Notes: generated by a model from the sequence alone, not told the origin. A DNA stretch of 64,000 bases from an uncultured bacterium (GCA_963712305.1 CAVQHI010000001.1:181383-245382), one strand, 5' to 3'. Shown: positions 12,548 through 29,802, numbered from the stretch's first letter. Made by a program: numbers and translations.

Positions 12548-12766
12548 GTTACCTGTCTTTTATCAATGAATTCTGAACTGTGGGAAAGTAAGGAATTATG
12601 CAGGTTTTTCCGTGGATTGAAATCGATATCTTCACGAAAACGATGACACATCCATTTCCAAATTATCACGTCATTCTCTTGGGGATTTCCCTGGAAAATA
12701 ACGACGATAGAGAGAATGGATCGTTTTACCCGGGGCTACATTTTTTTCGAGAACATCTCTTGTACG

Positions 12767-13609
12767 TTATATTTCCAAATCTTCAACCGGACTTTTCACA
12801 TCTTTTAAAGTCCGGGAACTTACATGGGTATATATCTGCGTGGTAGAAATATGCTTATGCCCGAGCAACTCCTGGATAAACCGGGTATCGGTGCCATTAT
12901 CGAGTAAATGAGTGGCAAAGCTGTGTCGTAATGAATGCGGTGTTACTTTCTTTTTGATACCACACATTTTTCTGTGTTTTCTCATTAGAGCCTGAATGGA
13001 TGCGGCAGAATATTTACCACCGGATTGGCCTTCGAAAAGATATTCTTCAGGCCGATACTCCTTTACATATTCCCTCAGGAGAGACAAAACCTTATCCGAT
13101 AATATGGAGTAACGGTCTTTTTGTCCTTTTCCCTGATCGATACGTATTTGCATTCGGTCTGAATCAATATCTTTGATTTTAAGGTTCAAAATCTCTCCCA
13201 CTCGTAAACCGGCTGAATAGCATACGGTGAAAATAGCTTTGTGTTTGATATTGGTGAATGAATTTAGAAACCGCTGCACCTCTTCAACCGACAGGACAAT
13301 TGGAATACGACTGGGTTTTTTCATTTTGATGTTGAAATCAAAATCCACAGACTCGTTCAACACCTCTGTATATAGGAATTTAACCGAGGCCAATAACTGC
13401 TTCATCATGGAATAGCCGTAACCCAACTCTTTCCTGGCATAGTGAAAAAAATCCTCCAGAACCCGGGGAGTTACTTCATTGCATTGACGAACATTTACAT
13501 AATCCAGAAAAATAGTCAATCCATTGAGATAGGCACGCAATGTACGGTCGCTATAATTTTTCAGCGTAAGCTTATGTTCGTACTTTGATATTAATTCCGA
13601 TTTCCTCAT
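12767..13609 (-). CDS. Tyrosine site-specific recombinase, Xer/IntI-related but short (280 aa), without the IntI-specific insertion
   Basis: Catalytic signature AGLRVGEI...GKGQKDR...HSLRHSFATHLLDNGTDTRFIQELLGHKHISTTQIYTHV, with a C-terminal VKSPVEDL tail resembling the IntI V.SPLD end. Only ~60 aa separate GKGQKDR from HSLRH. Confidence 0.9.
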   Translation of the reverse strand: MRKSELISKYEHKLTLKNYSDRTLRAYLNGLTIFLDYVNVRQCNEVTPRVLEDFFHYARKELGYGYSMMKQLLASVKFLYTEVLNESVDFDFNIKMKKPSRIPIVLSVEEVQRFLNSFTNIKHKAIFTVCYSAGLRVGEILNLKIKDIDSDRMQIRIDQGKGQKDRYSILSDKVLSLLREYVKEYRPEEYLFEGQSGGKYSAASIQALMRKHRKMCGIKKKVTPHSLRHSFATHLLDNGTDTRFIQELLGHKHISTTQIYTHVSSRTLKDVKSPVEDLEI

Positions 13610-13630
13610 TTTATTTTCGTTATTGTAATA

Positions 13631-13701
13631 ATAACATGAACAAAACTTACGTACGAAGCAAGGATAACATGAATTGAGTTCGTGTTATGCTATTGTTGGG
13701 C
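13631..13701 (+). other. attI-like recombinase-proximal site (direct repeats, a 10-5-10 inverted pair, GTTATGC and GTTGGGC boxes)
   Basis: ATAACATGAA at 13631-13640 and 13664-13673. TTCGTGTTAT at 13679-13688 is its inverted partner. GTTGGGC at 13695-13701 is the exact complement of the R'' box at 15815. Confidence 0.45.
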
Positions 13702-13745
13702 GTCATTAAAGAGAACCCGAATAAACAATGAACAGAATTGAATAA

Positions 13746-15440
13746 ATGAAAGCAAACGAAACAAAAGTAGAAGACTTTTTATCTTCAAATAAGACACAAT
13801 TTGTAATTCCAGTTTACCAAAGAAATTATGATTGGTCGACAAGTCAATGCAAACAACTTTTAGACGATATTTTGGAAGTTGGAACAAGTAACAAAATGAA
13901 TGCTCACTTTATTGGTAGTGTTGTTTACGTTCACGATGATGTTTATACATCTTCACGAATCAAAGAACTGACTGTAATTGATGGACAGCAAAGATTGACC
14001 ACGCTGACTTTAATTTATTTGGCTCTTTATCGTTTGGCAATTGAAATTGGAGACAAAGGACTTGAAGCAGAAATTTCTGAAACCTATCTGACAAACAAGT
14101 TTGCACCCGAAGAAGAAAAACTAAAACTACGACCAACTGAAAATAACGACAAAGCCATAAAATACCTTTTGAGAAGTGATAAGGACGAAGAATTTAGCGA
14201 CTTCTCAAAAGTGATAGACAATTTCAATTATTTCAACAGTCGAATAAGTGAAGAAAATTTAGAGTTCGTTCTCAAAGGACTCGCAAAACTAATGTTTGTT
14301 GAAATCTCGCTTGACAGAGAAAAAGACGACCCACAAAGAATTTTTGAGAGTTTAAACTCCACAGGTCTTGAATTATCACAAGCGGACTTAATTAGAAATT
14401 ACATTTTAATGGGTCTTAATCGCAGAGACCAAAATAAAATTTATAACAACTATTGGGAAATCATAGAGAAACTTGCAAAAGATGAAACCCTTAATACAAG
14501 CAAAGTATCGGATTTTATTAGAGATTATTTGACTTTGGTAAATAATAAAATACCGAATAAAAGCAAGGTCTATTTAGAGTTTAAGGCGAAATTTCCAACA
14601 ACTGATTTACAAGAATTAGAAACTAATCTCTCGCCAATAAAATCACTTGTTAAGTTTTACAATAAACTGCTCAACCCCAAAAATGAATTTGACAAAGACA
14701 TAAGATTACAACTTGAATATATAAACCGACTTGAAGTAAATGTAGCTTATCCGTTTTTGATGAAAGTCTATGAAGATTATTCAGAAAACATAATTGACAA
14801 AGCAACATTTATCAAAGTATTGGATTTTATTCAATCTTTTGCTTGGAGACGATTTATAGTTGGCTTACCCACAAACGCTCTCAACAAAATATTTATGACA
14901 CTTTATGAAAAAGTGGATAAAGACGATTATTTGTTGTCATTACAAAAATGGTTGCTTAAAAGACCAGGTTCGCAACGTTTCCCGAAAAACAAGGAAGTTA
15001 TTGAAAGTCTTAAACTAAAAGATGTCTACAACATAAAGTCCAAAAACAGAACTTATCTACTTGAGCGACTTGAAAATTTTGATAATAACGAGCCTGTAAT
15101 AATAGAAGGGAACACAGACATAACAATTGAACACATTTTCCCCCAAAATCCTGACCCAAAATGGAAAGTTGATTTAGGAGCAGATGAATACAATTTGATT
15201 AAAGAAACCTATCTAAACACAATCGGTAATTTGACATTATCAGGCAATAACGGAAAGCTTGGTAATAAACCATTTGCGTTTAAAAGAGATTTAGAGAATG
15301 CAGGATATAAAGACAGTCGTTTATGGCTCAATAAATATTTATCAATTTCCGAAAAGTGGGATAAAGCAGAAATTGAAAGACGTTTTGACCTTCTTGCTGA
15401 ACGATTTTTGAAAATTGGCAAATGCCACAAATCGAATTAG
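13746..15440 (+). CDS. GmrSD-family type IV restriction endonuclease (N-terminal DUF262 ParB-like NTPase, C-terminal DUF1524 HNH-like nuclease)
   Basis: DUF262 motifs FVIPVYQRNYDW and IDGQQRLTTLTL. DUF1524 region has TIEHIFPQNP...GNLTLSGNNGKLGNKPF. Confidence 0.85.
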   Translation: MKANETKVEDFLSSNKTQFVIPVYQRNYDWSTSQCKQLLDDILEVGTSNKMNAHFIGSVVYVHDDVYTSSRIKELTVIDGQQRLTTLTLIYLALYRLAIEIGDKGLEAEISETYLTNKFAPEEEKLKLRPTENNDKAIKYLLRSDKDEEFSDFSKVIDNFNYFNSRISEENLEFVLKGLAKLMFVEISLDREKDDPQRIFESLNSTGLELSQADLIRNYILMGLNRRDQNKIYNNYWEIIEKLAKDETLNTSKVSDFIRDYLTLVNNKIPNKSKVYLEFKAKFPTTDLQELETNLSPIKSLVKFYNKLLNPKNEFDKDIRLQLEYINRLEVNVAYPFLMKVYEDYSENIIDKATFIKVLDFIQSFAWRRFIVGLPTNALNKIFMTLYEKVDKDDYLLSLQKWLLKRPGSQRFPKNKEVIESLKLKDVYNIKSKNRTYLLERLENFDNNEPVIIEGNTDITIEHIFPQNPDPKWKVDLGADEYNLIKETYLNTIGNLTLSGNNGKLGNKPFAFKRDLENAGYKDSRLWLNKYLSISEKWDKAEIERRFDLLAERFLKIGKCHKSN

Positions 15441-15832
15441 AAGAAAGAGATGAAAACAATGAAGTGAACATATTTGAAGCAGAAGACCCGAAATTTAAGA
15501 AATTGGAGTATGCGATTTTCTTCGACCAAAAAATTGAAGTTAATCAAGTTGCAAAATTATATGTAGAAGTTTTTAAGCAACTTTTTGAGTTGCAACCAGA
15601 AACATTTTTCACGACTGACTTGGCAGAAAAGATAATCTTAACAAAGAATCCAAAAGAAGGAAATCCGAGACAAGCAGTTCCAATAAACGACACATATTTC
15701 ATTGAAGGGAATATTGACAACATTGGAAAATTTGAGAAGATAAAACACGCATTGACAATTTTTGATTCAGAAGACGAATTGACAATAAAGTATGCCGGAA
15801 AAAGAATAACGAACGCCCAACAATGTGTATAG
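15422..15832 (+). CDS. Hypothetical 136-aa protein; either a separate gene overlapping the GmrSD gene by 19 nt or its frameshifted C-terminal extension
   Basis: ATG sits in GGCAAATGCC inside the last codons of the upstream ORF. No family recognised. The 3' end overlaps the attC-like R'' box. Confidence 0.5.
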   Translation: MPQIELEERDENNEVNIFEAEDPKFKKLEYAIFFDQKIEVNQVAKLYVEVFKQLFELQPETFFTTDLAEKIILTKNPKEGNPRQAVPINDTYFIEGNIDNIGKFEKIKHALTIFDSEDELTIKYAGKRITNAQQCV

Positions 15833-15946
15833 TGCATGCGGGTTTCATCGATTATCGAGAGTTTGTGGCTCGTAAAAAAGGTGCGGTGTAAGCTGATAGG
15901 AAATCGATTCGTAATCCCGCACTACACCATACACTAACCGTTGGGC
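15815..15946 (+). repeat. attC-like recombination site 1 (132 nt imperfect hairpin)
   Basis: GCCCAAC-AAT-GTGTAT-AGTGCATGCGGG ... CCCGCACTACACC-ATACAC-TAACC-GTTGGGC. This gives a perfect 7-bp R box, an unpaired spacer, a paired L-like box and bulged bases. The central part also pairs (ATCGATT... / ...AATCGAT). Confidence 0.7.
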
Positions 15947-15949
15947 GGC

Positions 15950-16270
15950 ATGCAAAACATCCTGCATATGGATACAGATGATTTATCAATAGAAGCTTAC
16001 GATGGAATTTTAATAGAGGCTGAGAAATTAACTCATGATTTGACTTTGCATTTTGGCCTATTATCTGGCGATTGTAGAAATGAGACTGAATACATTGATA
16101 AAGCAGAGAAACTTACCAGAGAAATAATGCAAGTGGATGATTGGGAGTTAGATGATCTGTTTTGGGGGAATCCACCGGACAAAGAAAATTTGAATTCAAC
16201 ACTTCAAAAAATTATCAGTAATATTGAGAAGATTAAGAAAATTCCGATAGAGAAACGACATTATGACTAA
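15950..16270 (+). CDS. Hypothetical acidic protein (~106 aa), first gene of a two-gene cassette
   Basis: The ORF track starts at TTG 15941, inside the attC-like R' box; ATG 15950 is the more plausible start. No family recognised. The stop overlaps the next start (ATGACTAA). Confidence 0.5.
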   Translation: MQNILHMDTDDLSIEAYDGILIEAEKLTHDLTLHFGLLSGDCRNETEYIDKAEKLTREIMQVDDWELDDLFWGNPPDKENLNSTLQKIISNIEKIKKIPIEKRHYD

Positions 16271-16766
16271 AAAAGAGATTAAGCAAAAAGAGGAGAAACT
16301 TCTTGAAATGACAGGAGCCTTTTGTGCTCAAAAATTAGATGATGATTATTTTCAGTTATGTGAAAAGTTAATTAAAAAGCTCGGGAGAAAAAGGGAAGTT
16401 CCTTTTCAGAGAGGTAAGATGGAGATTTGGGCAGCTGCTGTGGTTTATGCTATAGGGTCGATTAATTTTCTATTTGATAAGTCGTTTGAGCCATATATGA
16501 CAGCGGAACAGATTAGTGAATATTTCGGAACAAAAAACTCAACGGTATCGAATAAAGCCAGACAGATTAAAGATATGTTTGACATGTGGCATTTCAGCCC
16601 TGAATTTTCGACACAGAAAATGACAGAAGATAATCCGTTTAATAATATGGTAATGGTTGACGGATTTATTGTACCTCTGGATACTTTGCCAGCAGATTTA
16701 CAAGAGATGGTTAAGGATGCCAGGTCACGTGGAGAAGATATTGAATTTCAAACAGAACAGAGATAA
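16263..16766 (+). CDS. Hypothetical 167-aa protein with a helix-turn-helix-like segment
   Basis: MTAEQISEYFGTKNSTVSNKARQIKDMF resembles an HTH. Translationally coupled to the upstream ORF (8-nt overlap). Confidence 0.55.
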   Translation: MTKKEIKQKEEKLLEMTGAFCAQKLDDDYFQLCEKLIKKLGRKREVPFQRGKMEIWAAAVVYAIGSINFLFDKSFEPYMTAEQISEYFGTKNSTVSNKARQIKDMFDMWHFSPEFSTQKMTEDNPFNNMVMVDGFIVPLDTLPADLQEMVKDARSRGEDIEFQTEQR

Positions 16767-16773
16767 TGCCAGC

Positions 16774-16882
16774 TGCCGACACGCGGTACAGTTAATAAGG
16801 GTTTCAGTGGTTTGCGAAGCAAAGCAATCCGCTTCAACTTTTCTTGTACCTTAACAGGTAAAAAGCCCGCCATCCGTTGTGC
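16774..16882 (+). repeat. attC-like site 2 (109 nt, degenerate R'' box)
   Basis: Begins 8 nt after the stop codon. The arm ACGCGG-TACAGTTAATAAGG pairs imperfectly with CCTTAACAGGTA...CCCGCCAT. It ends in GTTGTGC at 16876-16882. R'' reads TGCCGAC, a poor match to RYYYAAC. Confidence 0.4.
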
Positions 16883-16914
16883 CTAATAAAATGAACTATT
16901 AAATATTTCCATAT

Positions 16915-17496
16915 ATGAGAAAAGTATTGTTTCTGTTTACAGCAATTTTGATTTTCAATAGTTGTAGCACTTCATCAACAACTAACAAACCAACTTTAAA
17001 TGATTATAAAATTGGAGAAAAGTGGGTTTGGAATTGGAAACGTACAGTCGATGGAGAGGTTCGTGCGGAAGGAGAAGATATACAGGAGGTGGTAGACTAT
17101 AATGGAGTTTTAGGGCTTTGGAATGGTGTTGATACCGTCCAGATTTCGACTATTTTAGACCAAAAGCAAACCAGCACACCCTTTCGTGATTGGCCCTTGT
17201 ATGTAGGGAAAAAATGGAAATATGAATCAGAATGGGAAAATAATGAAGGTACGAAAGGGAAAACCAGTCAGGACGTTGAAATCGTTTCATTTGAAGAACT
17301 AAATGTTGTAGCCGGGAAATTTCTGGCTTACAAAATAGAATACAAGGGAATTGTAACAAATTCCAGAGGTTATAAAGGAGAGATGTCTGATACGTGGTGG
17401 TATTCCCCTGAATTAAAAACATATATCAAGCATGTAAATAATGATGGCTATGGTCTTTATACAAATGAACTAACTCATTATTCGAAAGCGCGGTAG
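16915..17496 (+). CDS. Hypothetical lipoprotein (193 aa), single-gene cassette
   Basis: Signal plus lipobox-like LIFNSCSTSS. No family recognised. Confidence 0.6.
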   Translation: MRKVLFLFTAILIFNSCSTSSTTNKPTLNDYKIGEKWVWNWKRTVDGEVRAEGEDIQEVVDYNGVLGLWNGVDTVQISTILDQKQTSTPFRDWPLYVGKKWKYESEWENNEGTKGKTSQDVEIVSFEELNVVAGKFLAYKIEYKGIVTNSRGYKGEMSDTWWYSPELKTYIKHVNNDGYGLYTNELTHYSKAR

Positions 17497-17505
17497 AAAA
17501 CCTAT

Positions 17506-17635
17506 GCACAACTATATAGAAAAATAATAGCCATGGTAGAGATAAGTTCATGGGTTTGAGCCCGCTTTAACTTTCTCGTAACTATATAGAAAATTGCCAC
17601 ATAGCCGGCTACTATTCTTATACTCAACGTTGCGC
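17506..17635 (+). repeat. attC-like recombination site 3 (130 nt imperfect hairpin)
   Basis: GCACAAC-TATATAGAAAAATAATAGCC ... GGCTACTATTCTTATACTCAAC-GTTGCGC. R boxes are complementary at 6/7 positions, and the arms pair with bulges. Starts 10 nt after the stop codon. Confidence 0.65.
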
Positions 17636-17983
17636 AACTGCATCCAATTAGCTTTTTGCTTGCTGATATTTCCTCTTTGGTAATTTCACTTTTAAGTCTG
17701 GGTTTGTCATTTGCGTAATCATACAACCAGGATACTTCCATAGAGTCGTACATTTTACAAATTCTCATTTATCCTGCCACATTATTAATTTTTCGTCTTC
17801 AATTCCGTAGGTTTACATACCTCCAATAATTATAACCGCTATTATAATAAGTGGTTATACCCAACTTTTTTTGTTTCAAGACGATTACGCATAAATTTTA
17901 TTTTTGTAACATAGTTTAAAATCAAAAATTAAGTGTGACATTTACTCAGATAGAAAGTGCTAATTTGAACTAAATAGGTACAA

Positions 17984-18430
17984 ATGAAAACAAACGAAGA
18001 AATTTTTATAATATTAATAGAAGAAGGCTTCAGTAAAGGTGATGTTTCTGTTTTTGACACCTATTCTTCGCCCGCGTTTGTTGAACATCAATATGGATTC
18101 TTCCCTCCCAATGTAGAAGGCGTTAAAAAGGCAATTAATAATCTACACTACGCTTTTCCAGATTTTTCGCTGACCATAGACGACATGATAACGGGCGGCT
18201 CCAAAGTTTGGGGAAGGATGACAGGACGAGGGACTCACAAAAACAAATTTGGACCGATGTTTCCAACCGGTAAAAAATTTGAAATTGCCGTAATCGATAT
18301 TATGCGATTTGAAACCGGGAAACTAATTGAACACTGGGGTGTCCCAGATAAATTGGCTCTCATGGAACAACTTGGGATGAAAGCTCCGCCAAAACTTATT
18401 ATGAAAATTATGAGCTTGCTTAACAGGTGA
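17984..18430 (+). CDS. SnoaL-like ester cyclase family protein
   Basis: FVEHQ...NLHYAFPDFSLTIDDMITGGSKVWGRMTGRGTH...FEIAVIDIMRFETGKLIEHWGVPD is typical of predicted ester cyclases (NTF2-like fold). Confidence 0.7.
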   Translation: MKTNEEIFIILIEEGFSKGDVSVFDTYSSPAFVEHQYGFFPPNVEGVKKAINNLHYAFPDFSLTIDDMITGGSKVWGRMTGRGTHKNKFGPMFPTGKKFEIAVIDIMRFETGKLIEHWGVPDKLALMEQLGMKAPPKLIMKIMSLLNR

Positions 18431-18511
18431 GAATAAAAAGAAGAATTTTTTTTTACAACGCTTATCATAATATCTACACCTGTATTTGCCAAACTTAAAT
18501 CAAAACATACA

Positions 18512-24718: not shown

Positions 24719-25504
24719 TCACAATGTTATCGTTGGCAAACCAGCTTTATCCCAAACAACGTTGAGAGTTCTGGCTATTGTCTTTTTTAGCTGGTTCCAA
24801 ACTGGTTCATCCTTATCCCCGGCGTATTTTTGGTTCACTTCAAGCTCAATCCCACAATAACGATCCATGCCGAATTGTTTTCTTAAATAGGTGGTAAAAC
24901 CATCGGATTTCCCCAGGTACGGATAATTTCTCCTGACGATCCACTTCCCATCATATTCATTGATCTCCTTCTTCCATAACGCAGCCATTCTGCTTTCACG
25001 TGAACTGGCGGGATCATAAAGAATACCGATATCGGCCAAACGCTCATTATCCTCAAGCACCGGGGTAAATGAATGTATGGATACGTGAAAGACAAAATTT
25101 TCGGGTGATGTCATTTCTAATGCATTCGCTATCTGCCGCTGCACATTGATTCGAAAGGGAAGATAAAAATTATTGATGATTTCACCTTTCTCTCTGCGAG
25201 ATAAATCATTAGTAAATCCGGAGAACACCTTCTTGTGCCCTATTGATCGATTTACTTCCACCAATAATCTTGTGAATGGATATACAAATACAGGCACCTG
25301 AATCTCACGTGTTACCAACATTGTGAGGTTAAGAGCACCGATATCAAACCCTCGATGAGAATTCAATATGTGATCGTAACCTTCAAAGAGAGGCTTGTAC
25401 ATCTCTGGCACATGATTGCCGGCATGTTCACAAGTAATTATCAGATGCGGTTTAGTCCGCTGATAGCTGGATTCCATTTGCGAGACAGTCGCATAATTGA
25501 CCAT
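24719..25504 (-). CDS. N-formylglutamate amidohydrolase-family protein (FGase-like amidohydrolase)
   Basis: HLIITCEHAGNHVPE...NSHRGFDIGA...SIHSFTP. The start may be the internal Met (MESSYQ), because the annotated start overlaps the upstream gene by 53 nt. Confidence 0.75.
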   Translation of the reverse strand: MVNYATVSQMESSYQRTKPHLIITCEHAGNHVPEMYKPLFEGYDHILNSHRGFDIGALNLTMLVTREIQVPVFVYPFTRLLVEVNRSIGHKKVFSGFTNDLSRREKGEIINNFYLPFRINVQRQIANALEMTSPENFVFHVSIHSFTPVLEDNERLADIGILYDPASSRESRMAALWKKEINEYDGKWIVRRNYPYLGKSDGFTTYLRKQFGMDRYCGIELEVNQKYAGDKDEPVWNQLKKTIARTLNVVWDKAGLPTITL

Positions 25505-26717
25505 AAAGCTTTTTCAAATCATTTTTTCCCGGGGTTGACGACAAACGTCTGAGAATACGCGTAGACAAGGTCCCTTCATTAAATATAACTTTCAGTGACT
25601 GGTGTAACGGTGAAACAGATTGTTCGAAGTCTTTGTAAACCTTTGTGGCAATGTGCCGCCATAAATCACCGGCAGTTACTGATTCACCTTCAATACCAAA
25701 CAATCTCAAATATGAAATATTATCAATAGCAGTTTCTTCCGCATCTTGAATAGTACTCATCAGAACAAGATACAAATCCTTTTCATCCTGATTTTTCTGA
25801 TACTCATAGGTGCTCCACTTTTCCTGTGTCAAAGCCCTGACCGTGTCGATGACAAGGCTGACAATTGCCAAATCTGCCAAAGGGCATTCTTGTATATCCA
25901 GTAATCGTATTTCAATTGCATTCCGATCAAACCTGGCAATGGCTCCCCGTGAATTCAACCACTCATCCTGCAGTGTCTTTTCCGGATCAAACGGAGTGAT
26001 GTCGCGATACATCCGCTGAAAGATCTCCTTATCATAATCATCGCGGGTAAAAACTCTTTCAGGAATCATCCAGCCGGTAATCGATGGAATCTTTATGGCA
26101 TTGTTCCGGTATACCTCCAACCGGAAGTCAGCAAGTCCGGTCTGTCCGCCATCGGCTATAGGTGAACTCGCGGCAAGGGCTGGCAAAAGAGGTAAAACAA
26201 GACGAATGGCAGCATGTAATCGCCCAAATTCGTCGTCACCGTTAAATGGGAGATTAATATGTGTACTCTGCAAATTTGCCCAGCCATGACCTTTGCAGTT
26301 GAAGATACGATCATAGGCTTCATAAATGGGATTGTATTCGTGCGGCCAGAGATGCATCTCATTCCACGGGTCCATCCACGGATGCATGGCTGTCGGCATT
26401 AATCTTGCACTAAATGCTTCAAGACGCTCATTTATTTCGTTGACATGATTCTGAAACGCCTGAGGCAGAGGTTCGAGTGACTTGGCAGGTCCCTTGGTCT
26501 TTAGTTCGACCACGTGCAGAACAAGTTCATTAGACCAGGCTATTTCGCCGCGTTCCACCTCAGAGATGTATGATCCTGCAACAGACTTTAGTAGTTCATC
26601 TGTAATCGGCTTAATATCCAGCGTCTCGCGGTCGACGATCATATATTCCAACTCTACCCCAAAAGCTTCAAATAAATGGAGTATCCGGCCTTTTTTCGCT
26701 TCCGTCTCGATGATCAA
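25452..26717 (-). CDS. GCS2-type carboxylate-amine ligase (glutamate-cysteine ligase family 2-like)
   Basis: FGVELEYMIVD..., HINLPF, IEIRLLD; about 420 aa. Confidence 0.75.
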   Translation of the reverse strand: MIIETEAKKGRILHLFEAFGVELEYMIVDRETLDIKPITDELLKSVAGSYISEVERGEIAWSNELVLHVVELKTKGPAKSLEPLPQAFQNHVNEINERLEAFSARLMPTAMHPWMDPWNEMHLWPHEYNPIYEAYDRIFNCKGHGWANLQSTHINLPFNGDDEFGRLHAAIRLVLPLLPALAASSPIADGGQTGLADFRLEVYRNNAIKIPSITGWMIPERVFTRDDYDKEIFQRMYRDITPFDPEKTLQDEWLNSRGAIARFDRNAIEIRLLDIQECPLADLAIVSLVIDTVRALTQEKWSTYEYQKNQDEKDLYLVLMSTIQDAEETAIDNISYLRLFGIEGESVTAGDLWRHIATKVYKDFEQSVSPLHQSLKVIFNEGTLSTRILRRLSSTPGKNDLKKLYGQLCDCLANGIQLSAD

Positions 26718-28174
26718 CTCCTTTCCTTTTTCTGTTCAACTCTCCTGATGAAGACTTCCATAATTCGTTTGTAAAGCCGGTCTTTTATTACAGCATCTTC
26801 AAAACCGGATTCAATACTGGGATTGTCATTTACTTCGATAACATAACACTCATCATCCACCATCTTAAGATCTACTCCATAGAGCCCATCTCCAATCAGG
26901 TTTGCCGCTTTAAGCGCGGTCTTCACCACTTTCGATGGGGCCTCCTCTACCGTCAGGGTATCCACTTTACCTGAAAATGTTTTGCCTGGTTCTGTCCGGT
27001 CGTAGATTTGCCAGTGCTTGCGTGCCATGTGGTACTTACACACGTAAAGCGGCTGCTGATCGATGATGCCCACACGCCAGTCGTACGATGTCGGCAAAAA
27101 TTCCTGGGCAATGACCAGTTCAGACTTATTCAGCAATTCATCCAGATTCTTTTCCAGTTCGGACTCGTCCACTACTTTAACAACACCTTGTGAAAATGAA
27201 CTGTCAGGCTGTTTCAGGATAATGGGGAAACCAAGATGAGTTGCCAGATTTTCCGTGTTGTCTTTATGGACAATCACGGTTTTAGGCGTTTTTACATTAT
27301 GCCGTGTGAGCAACTCTGCCAGGTAAACCTTATTCGTACATTTGAGGATAGATTCCGGATCGTCAATAACAACCAATCCTTCCATGGCAGCTCTTCGGGC
27401 AAAACGATAGGTGTGATGGTTCACATTTGTCGTCTCACGAATGAAAAGCGCGTCAAATTCTGCCAGCCTGCCATAATCATCTTTCTGAATCAATTCTGTC
27501 GAAAACCCCATCTGTTCGGCGGCCTTCATAAATCGCTGAAGCGCCTTATCATCAGATGGAGGAAATTCTTCGGATGGATTATAGAGTACAGCCAAATCAA
27601 ATCGGCTGCTCTTCTTCCTGGCGATAGTGGCGTGCCGGCGCGTGAAGTAATCCTGCGCCATATCCACTAAAAAAGGTTTGTGATCTTCGGGAATTTCATT
27701 CAATGAGATCGGACCTATATTCTGTAGTGTCCACTTCTGCGTTTTGACAAAATAGGCCCTGAGAAGAGGCGATTGAAATTGTCGATACAATTCCTGGCAC
27801 AGGTGATCGTAGCGTTTGGCAACGTTCCGGCCGAAGTATATGCTAAGAGTAAATCGGTCGGATTGGATAGGTTTGAGATTTTTCTGTATCAGTTCATCCA
27901 ATTCATCCGATACAAACCGGACCATCGTCGGCGATTTCAGGTCTTGTATGGTTACCACATTCGGCAGAGGTTTATGACCACGGGCCGCAGCCAGTAGTGA
28001 TACATAGTAGCCCAGGCTCTGATAGCGGTATGATTTATTGAGGTTGAAGACTTTTGCATTTTTAAGATTCGTGTAGGCAGAATCCGTCAAATATGCACGC
28101 GCCGATACAATAGACACGTCCGGAACGTCAAGTGGCCAGTCCTTTGGGTTATTTACGACGATCAATATTTGCAT
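26714..28174 (-). CDS. RimK-like ATP-grasp amidoligase with an extended N-terminal (RLAN-type) domain
   Basis: C-terminal ATP-grasp: FPIILKQPDSSFSQGV, IAQEFLPTSYDWRVGII, YVIEVNDNPSIE. A ~200-aa N-terminal domain precedes it. ATGA overlap with the downstream gene. Confidence 0.8.
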   Translation of the reverse strand: MQILIVVNNPKDWPLDVPDVSIVSARAYLTDSAYTNLKNAKVFNLNKSYRYQSLGYYVSLLAAARGHKPLPNVVTIQDLKSPTMVRFVSDELDELIQKNLKPIQSDRFTLSIYFGRNVAKRYDHLCQELYRQFQSPLLRAYFVKTQKWTLQNIGPISLNEIPEDHKPFLVDMAQDYFTRRHATIARKKSSRFDLAVLYNPSEEFPPSDDKALQRFMKAAEQMGFSTELIQKDDYGRLAEFDALFIRETTNVNHHTYRFARRAAMEGLVVIDDPESILKCTNKVYLAELLTRHNVKTPKTVIVHKDNTENLATHLGFPIILKQPDSSFSQGVVKVVDESELEKNLDELLNKSELVIAQEFLPTSYDWRVGIIDQQPLYVCKYHMARKHWQIYDRTEPGKTFSGKVDTLTVEEAPSKVVKTALKAANLIGDGLYGVDLKMVDDECYVIEVNDNPSIESGFEDAVIKDRLYKRIMEVFIRRVEQKKERS

Positions 28175-28180
28175 GATACA

Positions 28181-28885
28181 TTATTCCTGAGGACGAATAA
28201 TCAATAGGTTGGCATCGTAAGTAATGATTCCAAGCATGATCGCACAGGTGACACGATCGATACTGACTTCATATTGATGGCCAAATCCCAATGGATTAAA
28301 TTTAAGTGGATCCGATACGAACACCTTTCTCTCTAACTTATCGTATCCGTGAATAATCACAAAATGTCCTGATGGATCTCCACGAATATCATCAAAATCC
28401 GCATTGGGACCAAACTCGCGAGCGCTCCTGTAAAGGTAAGTCGCACTTAATCCTGTAAGTATCGGCTGGTTACGTTTCACAAACTTACGGATCAAAGCAG
28501 CATTCAGATCTTCTAATTTCACTTTGCCGCCCAACTCCAGAAACTCAATATATCCTTTCGTAGCGAGTAAAAGCTTAGGATCTTTTTTAGCTTCAAGCTG
28601 TTTATACAACCGGTCGATGATAAAAGACACATCTTTCCCGAACCAGGTCGGATCGAACACCTGTAGATTGTAAGAATAGATGGTGGCCTTATAACCGCGC
28701 CGCAACGCATGACACCCCAAAAATACCCCGAGTGTACCTCCTTCATCCAGCTTATTCACCTCGTTAATTACGGAATCAAGGGGTACGTGATCATCAAAAA
28801 AACGATAGACTGTATGAAGACAAGTAGGTCCGCATGTTGTTTCATCCGGCTGGGGTAATATTTCGACAGGTAATGTGTTTCTCAT
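28181..28885 (-). CDS. Papain-fold (C39-like) cysteine peptidase-domain protein
   Basis: Candidate catalytic Cys in QPDETTCGPTCL and His in PSGHFVIIHGYD. First gene of the amidoligase operon. Confidence 0.6.
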   Translation of the reverse strand: MRNTLPVEILPQPDETTCGPTCLHTVYRFFDDHVPLDSVINEVNKLDEGGTLGVFLGCHALRRGYKATIYSYNLQVFDPTWFGKDVSFIIDRLYKQLEAKKDPKLLLATKGYIEFLELGGKVKLEDLNAALIRKFVKRNQPILTGLSATYLYRSAREFGPNADFDDIRGDPSGHFVIIHGYDKLERKVFVSDPLKFNPLGFGHQYEVSIDRVTCAIMLGIITYDANLLIIRPQE

Positions 28886-29082
28886 CAGCGATGATATTAT
28901 TGATATGTATTAATGAAAATTACGAAGAAATAACATCTGCACCATGATCTGGGGAAAATAATACACGTATTACCTATTACCGGACAAATACTATATGGAT
29001 GATTGGATGGATGGAAGACTGAATGGCTGATTGGACAGCCGAATGCAAATGACGCCCCATCGCTCTGTTGGTCGCTATTCTC

Positions 29083-29290
29083 TATCCTACACAACGACTG
29101 TCATTCTGATGTTCTTCGACTTGTCGAGGAATGTAGAATCCCGTATGCAATGGGCAACGGTTGTGTAACCTCCCCAAACCCCTCCACATCCGTGGGAGGG
29201 GCTTACGCACCGTGTACATATTTCGAGAGTTGCGCCCTGCGAACGAGATCCGCCTGCGGTCGTTGACAATCCGTTGTGTTCGGATTTCAG
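29083..29290. repeat. Structured intergenic repeat, copy A
   Basis: Direct repeat of 29422-29632. Contains hairpins CTTCGAC-TT-GTCGAGG (29114-29129) and CCCCTCCAC...GTGGGAGGGG (29179-29201). Confidence 0.7.
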
Positions 29291-29327
29291 GCGGTGTGTC
29301 GTAATCGTGGAGGAGGGGTAATCACGC

Positions 29328-29357
29328 GTAGGGGTAATCACGGGGGATTACCCCTAC
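29328..29357. repeat. Perfect 11-bp hairpin between the two repeat copies
   Basis: GTAGGGGTAAT-CACGGGGG-ATTACCCCTAC, preceded by a tandem GGGGTAATCACG (29315-29326 and 29331-29342). Confidence 0.6.
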
Positions 29358-29421
29358 GTTTAGAATATTCCGATTATTTTTTCTCTTTTTGCGTTGATTG
29401 TGCAGGATCGTCCATATACAC

Positions 29422-29632
29422 TATTGCTACACGACCTCTGTCATTCTGATGTTCTCCGGCTTGCCGGTGAACGTAGAATCCCGTATGCATTCATGCAACG
29501 ATTGTGAGACCTCCCTATCCCCCTCCACATTCGTGGAAGGGGCTTACGTACCGTGATTCATATTTCGAGAGTTGCGCCCTGCGAACGAGATCCGCCTGCA
29601 GCGGATGACAATCCGTTGTGTTCGGGATTCCG
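29422..29632. repeat. Structured intergenic repeat, copy B
   Basis: Offset ~340 nt from copy A. The equivalent hairpin is CTCCGGC-TT-GCCGGTG (29454-29469), with two compensatory pair changes. Confidence 0.7.
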
Positions 29633-29744
29633 TGTTCACGGATGACATCCGTTGTATTTTTGGTTGCTTGTTTAAGGATGACATTATCTATATTTCGCTG
29701 TTATTACTTGATTTATGAGGTGCGTACTGACCACACATACGAAC

Positions 29745-29780
29745 AACAAAAAAGGCCGTCCTCAAATGAAGACGGCCTTT
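29745..29780 (-). terminator. Rho-independent terminator of the pdh operon
   Basis: AAAGGCCGTC-10 nt loop-GACGGCCTTT, followed by a T run on the minus strand. Lies 23 nt past the E2 stop. Confidence 0.8.
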
Positions 29781-29802
29781 CATATTCCATTTATGTCTGG
29801 TA

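Follow-up and report, generated by a model that had tools for sequence, protein, structure and literature searches.

What is made by an operon that joins two ATP-dependent amide-forming enzymes to two amide-cleaving ones? The question is raised by positions 24719-28885 of a 64,000-nucleotide (nt) stretch of DNA from an uncultured bacterium (GCA_963712305.1, CAVQHI010000001.1:181383-245382; hereafter the window), where four genes encode a papain-fold cysteine peptidase (gene 1), an RLAN-RimK-like ATP-grasp ligase (gene 2), a GCS2-family carboxylate-amine ligase (gene 3) and an N-formylglutamate-amidohydrolase-like enzyme of the FGase family (gene 4). An initial annotation, made by a model from the sequence, had read these genes as an operon that builds or modifies a peptide-like product. 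We confirmed that the four-gene block is a real, tightly coupled operon. It is not a new kind of neighbourhood but a typical example of one that comparative genomics had already predicted and that is not known to have been characterized. We tentatively propose that it may make a short acidic peptide by a route resembling glutathione biosynthesis.

Coupling and conservation of the four genes

The region holds four consecutive minus-strand open reading frames (ORFs) of 234, 486, 421 and 261 amino acids (aa), and both the ORFs and their junctions, read from the sequence, showed the tight coupling that the initial annotation had described. Between the peptidase stop codon (TAA) and the ligase start codon (ATG) lie 6 nt (tgtatc), the gap expected from that annotation. 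The ligase and GCS2 genes share a 4-nt start/stop overlap, which the annotation had given as ATGA; the overlap is present, but its letters are TTGA and the GCS2 gene starts with TTG. This start is credible, and the first in-frame ATG (Met26) is excluded, because the invariant residues G20, E22 and E24 precede Met26. A 4-nt overlap between the same two genes was found in 28 homologous loci, as ATGA in 22, GTGA in five and TTGA in one, and the TTGA overlap implies translational coupling of the ATP-grasp and GCS2 genes. The third overlap, also noted before, comprises 53 nt shared by the GCS2 and FGase genes, or 26 nt if FGase begins at Met10.

The window comes from a Balneolales bacterium. Relatives were collected by scanning a single genome of each species with a pattern, which gave 113, with 80 loci kept and gene presence scored by tblastn. 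These 80 loci span at least 10 phyla, including Balneolota, Bacteroidota (Rufibacter, Sabulibacter and Nibribacter), Ignavibacteriota (Melioribacter), Fibrobacterota, Planctomycetota, Acidobacteriota, Myxococcota, Gammaproteobacteria, Spirochaetota, Hydrogenedentota and others. The nearest relatives, L001 and L002, are metagenome-assembled genomes (MAGs) of Balneolales with ligases 88-89% identical to gene 2; the Melioribacter relatives carrying the block are likewise MAGs only. Of 78 evaluable loci, 68 had the peptidase gene immediately upstream of the ligase gene; GCS2 was its immediate downstream neighbour in 69 of 74, and FGase came next after GCS2 in 41 of 67. Three other loci, from Fibrobacterota, had FGase on the same strand but some 5.5 kb more distant. 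The FGase count is a lower bound, as at least one divergent FGase (in L038) was missed; FGase was the least constant of the four members. Among the 66 loci that could be evaluated in full, 43 had all four genes and 57 had the three-gene core, so the co-occurrence in other genomes by which the initial annotation had proposed to check its reading was borne out across phyla. Gene order and strand recurred in at least 10 phyla, which is more than chance would give.

The pairwise-identity matrices of the four families correlated strongly (Mantel r 0.80-0.90; 0 of 999 permutations reached the observed value). The four genes have therefore travelled together, and we read them as a self-contained module of the cytoplasm, inherited and transferred as a block. 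Across phyla, ligase identity was 55-65% and that of the operon proteins 50-65%, and in metagenomes the operon proteins formed thousands of 90%-identity clusters. No fifth conserved family (no transporter, carrier protein, glycosyltransferase or export gene) emerged on clustering all flanking ORFs of the 80 loci, and the lineage-specific neighbours (ClpB, IlvA, a LytTR regulator, a holin-like protein, an MscK-like channel and an amidase) had no common theme. A search of all loci for conserved small ORFs, of 25-110 aa and no more than 1.5 kb away from the operon, returned only low-complexity or lineage-specific shadow ORFs. With neither a further family nor a small ORF conserved, these results argue against a ribosomally synthesized and post-translationally modified peptide (RiPP) precursor or an adjacent tag gene, which the small-ORF search across loci ruled out. 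We also rejected a link to known anti-phage defence, since PADLOC returned 0 hits for all four proteins.

The four enzymes and their variant loci

The family assignments of the initial annotation, two amide-forming and two amide-cleaving enzymes, all held in Pfam, NCBIfam, and PDB sequence and structure comparisons. Gene 1 matched Peptidase_C39_2 (PF13529, 8.9e-10, 39.7 bits against a threshold of 24) and Peptidase_C39 (PF03412, 3.3e-5), and contains the two motifs named earlier, ETTCGPTC with Cys18 and GHFVIIHGYD with His174. Gln12, Cys18 and His174 were retained in at least 97% of 45 peptidase homologues from the loci, and across 35 database homologues Asp192, too, was invariant; the four residues look catalytic and form a putative catalytic set. 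In Foldseek searches with the AF2 model (pLDDT 81), the best PDB folds were C39-like 3erv and the peptidase domains of PCAT1 and ComA (probability 1.0), followed at greater distance by the pseudomurein endoisopeptidase PeiR, the phytochelatin synthase Alr0975 and the transacylase CtaG, the last of these a weak match (E ~1e-2). No signal peptide was evident in the sequences of any of the four proteins, and gene 1 is, judged by its sequence, a cytoplasmic, stand-alone C39/DUF3335-like papain-fold enzyme. A bacteriocin-processing C39 peptidase of the PCAT type was rejected, as the 234-aa protein stands alone and the 80 loci have no ABC transporter or conserved small ORF.

Both domains of gene 2 scored above their Pfam gathering scores, RLAN at residues 25-170 (PF14401, 5.2e-48, 163 bits against 25) and the RimK ATP-grasp domain at residues 281-456 (PF08443, 9.9e-14, 51.8 bits against 21), in agreement with its earlier description as a RimK-like ligase with a long N-terminal domain. 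Orthology to RimK, the S6--L-glutamate ligase, was rejected: gene 2 scored 31.2 bits on NF007764 (cut-off 331) and 81.8 bits (5e-23) on TIGR00768 (cut-off 143.4), and none of the usual partners of RimK (RimA, RimB and a retropepsin-like protease) lies near the operon. An S6 glutamyl ligase in the company of these partners, the identity that the initial annotation had itself set against its reading, was thus not what we found. PDB sequence relatives of the ligase are distant (E ~1e-7), and K321, D435, E447, N449 and a D365-W366-R367 motif are invariant among its homologues. In Escherichia coli RimK, R189 belongs to the site for the C-terminal carboxylate, R64 to the site for the incoming glutamate, and R96, R98 and R102 to a positively charged belt for the poly-Glu chain or S6 tail (PMC10375531). 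When these residues were placed on gene 2 by HMMER alignment, R189 fell on R367 and R64 on R246, both invariant, whereas the belt fell on K278, T280 and Y284 and was not kept as arginine. The replacement of the belt by K, T and Y argues against tracking of a long chain or acidic tail, and the alignment as a whole suggests that the chemistry is RimK-like and the incoming amino acid acidic, but that the enzyme does not follow a long acidic chain processively.

The RLAN domain carries an invariant motif, YQSxGYYVSLLAxARGHxPxP, which implies a specific binding role, and its family is compact, its matches in 1.84 billion representatives falling into only 754 clusters at 50% identity. Its AF2 model was confident (pLDDT 84.6), and the best Foldseek matches were the ATP-grasp enzymes LysX/ArgX, RimK, synapsin and ITPK1 (probability 1.0, TMq ~0.5), so that RLAN may be the degenerate N-terminal half of an ATP-grasp, a duplicated half-module. 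At the sequence level an internal duplication was not supported, as profiles of RLAN and of the ATP-grasp half of the same protein gave no significant match (hhalign E=0.25); the hint of ATP-grasp ancestry comes from the fold search alone.

Gene 3 matched GCS2 (PF04107, 4.7e-29, 102.1 bits against 21), and, as putatively catalytic positions, E22, E24, H68, E71, H112, R257 and several other residues, arginines among them, were invariant in 60 homologues. No PDB sequence relative was found at E<=0.01. An equivalog of YbdK or of the cyanobacterial type of GshA was rejected, the best scores being 58.1 against 371 (PRK13515) and 56.6 against 176.4 (TIGR02050). Gene 4 matched FGase (PF05013, 7.4e-17, 62.7 bits against 28.9) and, in the PDB, the hypothetical protein Atu2144 (2odf, 3.7e-15); C25-E26-H27, H50, D54, R79, N85, R86, H140, H144, E220 and E222 were invariant in 33 homologues. 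A HutG N-formylglutamate amidohydrolase of histidine utilization was rejected, as there was no NCBIfam match at E<=0.01 and no hut gene in the neighbourhood. By their conserved residues, all four proteins look catalytically competent.

A variant of the locus lacks GCS2 and FGase. In Desulforhopalus singaporensis (L072, 8001-10598) the RLAN-ligase gene lies beside a single gene for a GNAT fused to a DUF3335 C39-like peptidase, and chromid p1 of Azospirillum brasilense Sp7 (L082, 4763-7470) likewise encodes a GNAT-DUF3335 fusion and an RLAN-ligase. The DUF3335 domain of the Azospirillum fusion is homologous to the gene 1 peptidase (hhalign E=1.3e-5), and the RLAN-ligases of the variant are 48-52% identical to gene 2. 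The peptidase and the RLAN-ligase are, across the sequences compared, the constant pair, and the second amide-forming or acylating enzyme appears interchangeable, being either GCS2 or a GNAT. As GNAT stands in for GCS2, an N-acylating step followed by ATP-grasp ligation would be a recurring theme. The GNATs of the variant were nearest to RimI, with 85.2 bits against a cut-off of 86.4. Direct GNAT-RLAN-ATP-grasp fusions also exist, such as P0301 (646 aa), and the proteins of the GNAT variant include P0288 and P0327. These fusions were considered as the N-acetylglutaminylglutamine amide (NAGGN) synthetase Ngg, which was rejected: P0301 had no match to TIGR03103 (cut-off 569), and the Azospirillum GNAT domain alone reached 34.4 bits.

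Other loci differed in their partners. Plasmid pZYPA1927 of Pseudomonas aeruginosa (L081, 5908-7497) encodes a stand-alone RLAN-RimK protein of 529 aa (44% identity) without the three partners, near ggt, a Glu/Asp ABC transporter and pagP. In Fibrobacterota, GCS2 and FGase are separated by an insertion, on the same strand, of three pseudopilin-like genes (with the N_methyl motif) and one or two genes for proteins of about 530 aa without a Pfam match, and ClpB is divergently adjacent in nine loci of this phylum. A Chitinispirillaceae locus (L022, 10814-12253) has an amidase-signature enzyme (PF01425, 1.4e-156) after GCS2 and lacks the C39 peptidase and FGase, and a Tectomicrobia locus (L008, 10715-14236) has an MscK-like mechanosensitive channel of 1173 aa after GCS2.

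Candidate functions of the operon

The reading that we prefer, at a probability of about 40%, is drawn by analogy: the operon would carry out a glutathione-style synthesis of a short acidic gamma-glutamyl peptide by two ligases, with two hydrolases for trimming or turnover. At the expense of ATP, GCS2 would form an amide bond between the amino group of an amine or free amino acid and a carboxylate, in all likelihood the gamma-carboxylate of glutamate, giving a dipeptide of the N-(gamma-glutamyl) type. The RLAN-RimK ligase would then activate the alpha-carboxylate of the GCS2 product as an acyl phosphate and add one or a few Glu or Asp residues, and the C39/DUF3335 peptidase (possibly acting as a transferase) and FGase would hydrolyse bonds, thereby setting the length or level of the product, or recycling or deprotecting it. 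We infer the substrates, the order of the steps and the working direction of the peptidase; the proposal rests on gene order, coupling, conservation of the block, co-evolution, catalytic-looking residues and the lack of a conserved transporter, carrier or precursor gene. The GCS2 and FGase enzymes that have been characterized take free amino acids or N-acyl-glutamate as substrates. We favour a small peptide because of this chemistry, because no precursor, carrier or export gene is conserved, because the RimK belt is absent and because a GNAT can replace GCS2. The papain-fold neighbours phytochelatin synthase and CtaG, which act on small gamma-glutamyl peptides or transacylate (PMC7183216), also speak for it. 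The peptide-like product of the initial annotation is thereby supported, in that the four family calls hold and neither a failure of the genes to co-occur nor S6-ligase orthology was found.

Several points weigh against a small peptide. Every substrate assignment rests on analogy, and the closest characterized ATP-grasp relatives, RimK and LysX/ArgX, act on protein C-termini. C39-type peptidases usually cleave peptides or proteins, and RimI, which the variant GNAT most resembles, is a protein N-terminal acetyltransferase. The cross-phylum identity of the ligase would also fit a conserved macromolecular substrate, and FGase, absent or replaced in about one-third of loci, may therefore be accessory. 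The C-terminus-directed ligase relatives, the action of C39-fold peptidases on peptides, the RimI-like GNAT and the very high cross-phylum conservation all favour the main rival, in which the operon would reversibly modify, after translation, a protein whose gene lies at another place in the genome; we consider this somewhat unlikely. RLAN-RimK would here extend the C-terminus of a protein with Glu or other residues, as RimK does for S6 and LysX/ArgX for LysW, GCS2 would form a second (iso)peptide bond, like the related PafA in pupylation, and the modification would be taken off by the peptidase and FGase, in the manner of Dop or of the deglutamylases that counteract TTLL. The invariance of R367, the arginine for the C-terminal carboxylate of the substrate, fits such a role, and RLAN, an additional domain of high conservation, could serve for docking to proteins. 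However, no candidate substrate gene is conserved beside the operon, the arginines of the acidic-tail belt are not kept, no protein-directed member of the GCS2 or FGase families is known to have been characterized, and the patchy distribution, which resembles that of horizontally transferred genes, requires the substrate in all recipient genomes. Widespread reversible tagging of proteins or peptides outside Actinobacteria, like pupylation or glutamylation of the RimK/TTLL type, in which the two ligases would write a short acidic (iso)peptide tag onto at least one conserved cellular protein, the peptidase and FGase would erase it and RLAN, as a degenerate ATP-grasp half, would dock the target, is an analogy that we regard as quite improbable.

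We are also doubtful that the peptidase is synthetic, like phytochelatin synthase, BtrH or CtaG, in which case it would take an acyl group onto Cys18 and pass it to an amine to give an oligomer or conjugate, and FGase would strip off an N-acyl or gamma-glutamyl group that had served as protection, following the gamma-glutamyl protecting-group logic of butirosin. Transpeptidation of this kind would suit the peptidase and RLAN-ligase as the most constant pair across the GCS2 and GNAT variants and the presence of phytochelatin synthase and CtaG among the structural neighbours, and the pairing of an ATP-grasp with a transacylating papain-like enzyme has a published precedent (PMC7183216). Yet neither a gene for a peptidyl carrier protein (PCP) nor any other thiotemplate component is conserved in the 80 loci, the structures that matched best belong to hydrolytic C39 peptidases, and sequence does not separate transferase from hydrolase. 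The decoration of a rhamnose-containing cell-surface polysaccharide, in turn, is suggested by dTDP-rhamnose genes on the same strand downstream of the operon: NTP_transferase (rfbA-like), which begins 75 nt after FGase with no terminator predicted between them, RmlD, dTDP_sugar_isom and a dehydratase. The initial annotation had reported this co-oriented arrangement, which is true here but is conserved only in L001 and L002, the two 88-89% identical relatives, and not in the other loci, including other Balneolaceae. As the adjacency (2 of 80 loci) is confined to the two closest relatives, it is lineage-specific and gives no functional hint; the juxtaposition is, by this distribution, a recent one. 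No glycosyltransferase or export gene is conserved, and the four proteins lack an evident signal peptide. A functional link to dTDP-rhamnose was therefore rejected, and we hold the decoration of a polysaccharide to be extremely unlikely.

Surroundings of the operon and comparison with known systems

Upstream of the operon, a strong terminator-like hairpin (Table 1) is the probable 5' boundary of the transcription unit. The intergenic region before gene 1 (28886-29802) is much shorter in L001 and L002, and contains two direct copies of a sequence of about 200 nt (29087-29288 and 29427-29630; 85-92% identical, about 341 nt apart), with no third copy in the window and no exact match in the 80 loci. 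The minus-strand RNA of one copy folds at -78.3 kcal/mol (z=-3.1), and an Rfam scan of the whole window, this repeat included, gave no hits. The repeat could be a duplicated insertion resembling a miniature inverted-repeat transposable element (MITE) or an unannotated structured RNA in the operon leader. Further away, GC content falls to 0.33-0.39 at about 12700-18500, compared with about 0.45, and this stretch, with its integrase and restriction endonuclease genes, is probably a small integrated defence island.

Table 1. Features of the operon, of its flanks and of related loci (positions are those of the window, except where a locus is named)
Feature	Position	Strand	Basis or remark
Gene 1, C39/DUF3335-like papain-fold cysteine peptidase	28181..28885	-	234 aa; Pfam
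Gene 2, RLAN-RimK-like ATP-grasp ligase, whole gene	26714..28174	-	486 aa; Pfam
Gene 2, N-terminal part, RLAN domain (residues 1 to ~190)	27605..28174	-	PF14401
Gene 2, C-terminal part, RimK-type ATP-grasp carboxylate-amine ligase (residues ~191-486)	26714..27604	-	PF08443
Gene 3, GCS2-family (YbdK-like, glutamine-synthetase superfamily) carboxylate-amine ligase	25452..26717	-	421 aa; TTG start
Gene 4, FGase-family (N-formylglutamate-amidohydrolase-like) amidohydrolase	24719..25504	-	261 aa, or 252 aa from Met10 (25477)
Spacer between peptidase stop and ATP-grasp start, 6 nt	28175..28180	-	Sequence
TTGA start/stop overlap of ATP-grasp and GCS2 genes	26714..26717	-	Sequence; same NTGA overlap in 28 related loci
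Strong intrinsic-terminator-like hairpin, 3' of the upstream PDH E2 gene	29750..29781	-	14-bp stem, then T run
Tyrosine integrase	12767..13609	-	Low-GC stretch
GmrSD type IV restriction endonuclease	13746..15440	+	Low-GC stretch
DUF6398 protein	16263..16766	+	Low-GC stretch
Fibrobacterota pseudopilin-like inserts	L020 10894-14783; L021 11205-16424; L024 10826-16172; L026 10929-16362		

Iyer, Abhiman, Burroughs and Aravind (2009; Mol Biosyst 5:1636) are said to have predicted a neighbourhood of an RLAN-RimK-like ATP-grasp, GCS2 and a papain-like peptidase, and their paper is reportedly the source of the Pfam family RLAN; our locus, with these domain families in the same operonic association, appears to match that neighbourhood. 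In a passage of a 2023 review that paper is cited for the related GNAT-DUF3335 fusions. A full-text literature search found no experimental characterization of the operon, consistent with the statement in the initial annotation that product and role are uncharacterized. Identification of the product would assign a function to four large families of "hypothetical or generic" proteins at once. It would bring to light a small peptide that is both new and widespread (a thiol, an osmolyte or a cofactor tail) or else a protein modification new to bacteria. The system is experimentally tractable in cultured hosts, with Rufibacter, Rhodohalobacter and Desulfuromonas for the form described here and Azospirillum for the GNAT variant.

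Among known systems, glutathione biosynthesis (GshA and GshB) offers the parallel on which the gamma-glutamyl peptide proposal is modelled. Both use two successive ATP-dependent carboxylate-amine ligases, one from the glutamate-cysteine ligase/glutamine synthetase (GCL/GS) superfamily and one ATP-grasp, and the operon proteins have weak NCBIfam similarity to gshA and gshB models. The scores are, however, far under the cut-offs of those models (PRK12458, 53.8 against 408; TIGR02048, 29.4 against 249), and the operon has an extra RLAN domain and two dedicated hydrolases. The proposed ligase step also resembles the synthesis of N-acetylaspartylglutamate (NAAG) by RIMKLA/B in its logic of an N-acyl-amino acid plus Glu. 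With RimK the ligase shares the ATP-grasp catalytic core and the conserved equivalents of R189 and R64, but it differs in its added 190-residue RLAN domain, its other partners and its lack of the belt arginines. A pairing of an ATP-grasp with a papain-fold enzyme of the C39/BtrH-like kind also occurs in CtaD/CtaG (closthioamide) and BtrJ/BtrH (butirosin), whereas here no carrier protein or pyridoxal phosphate (PLP) decarboxylase is conserved and the partners are GCS2 and FGase; a thiotemplated pathway of the closthioamide type was rejected, as no further family (PCP or PLP decarboxylase) is conserved in the 80 loci. The two-gene GNAT-DUF3335 variant has in common with the operon the RLAN-ligase and a homologous C39-like peptidase domain, and differs from it in having a RimI-like GNAT in the place of GCS2 and no FGase.

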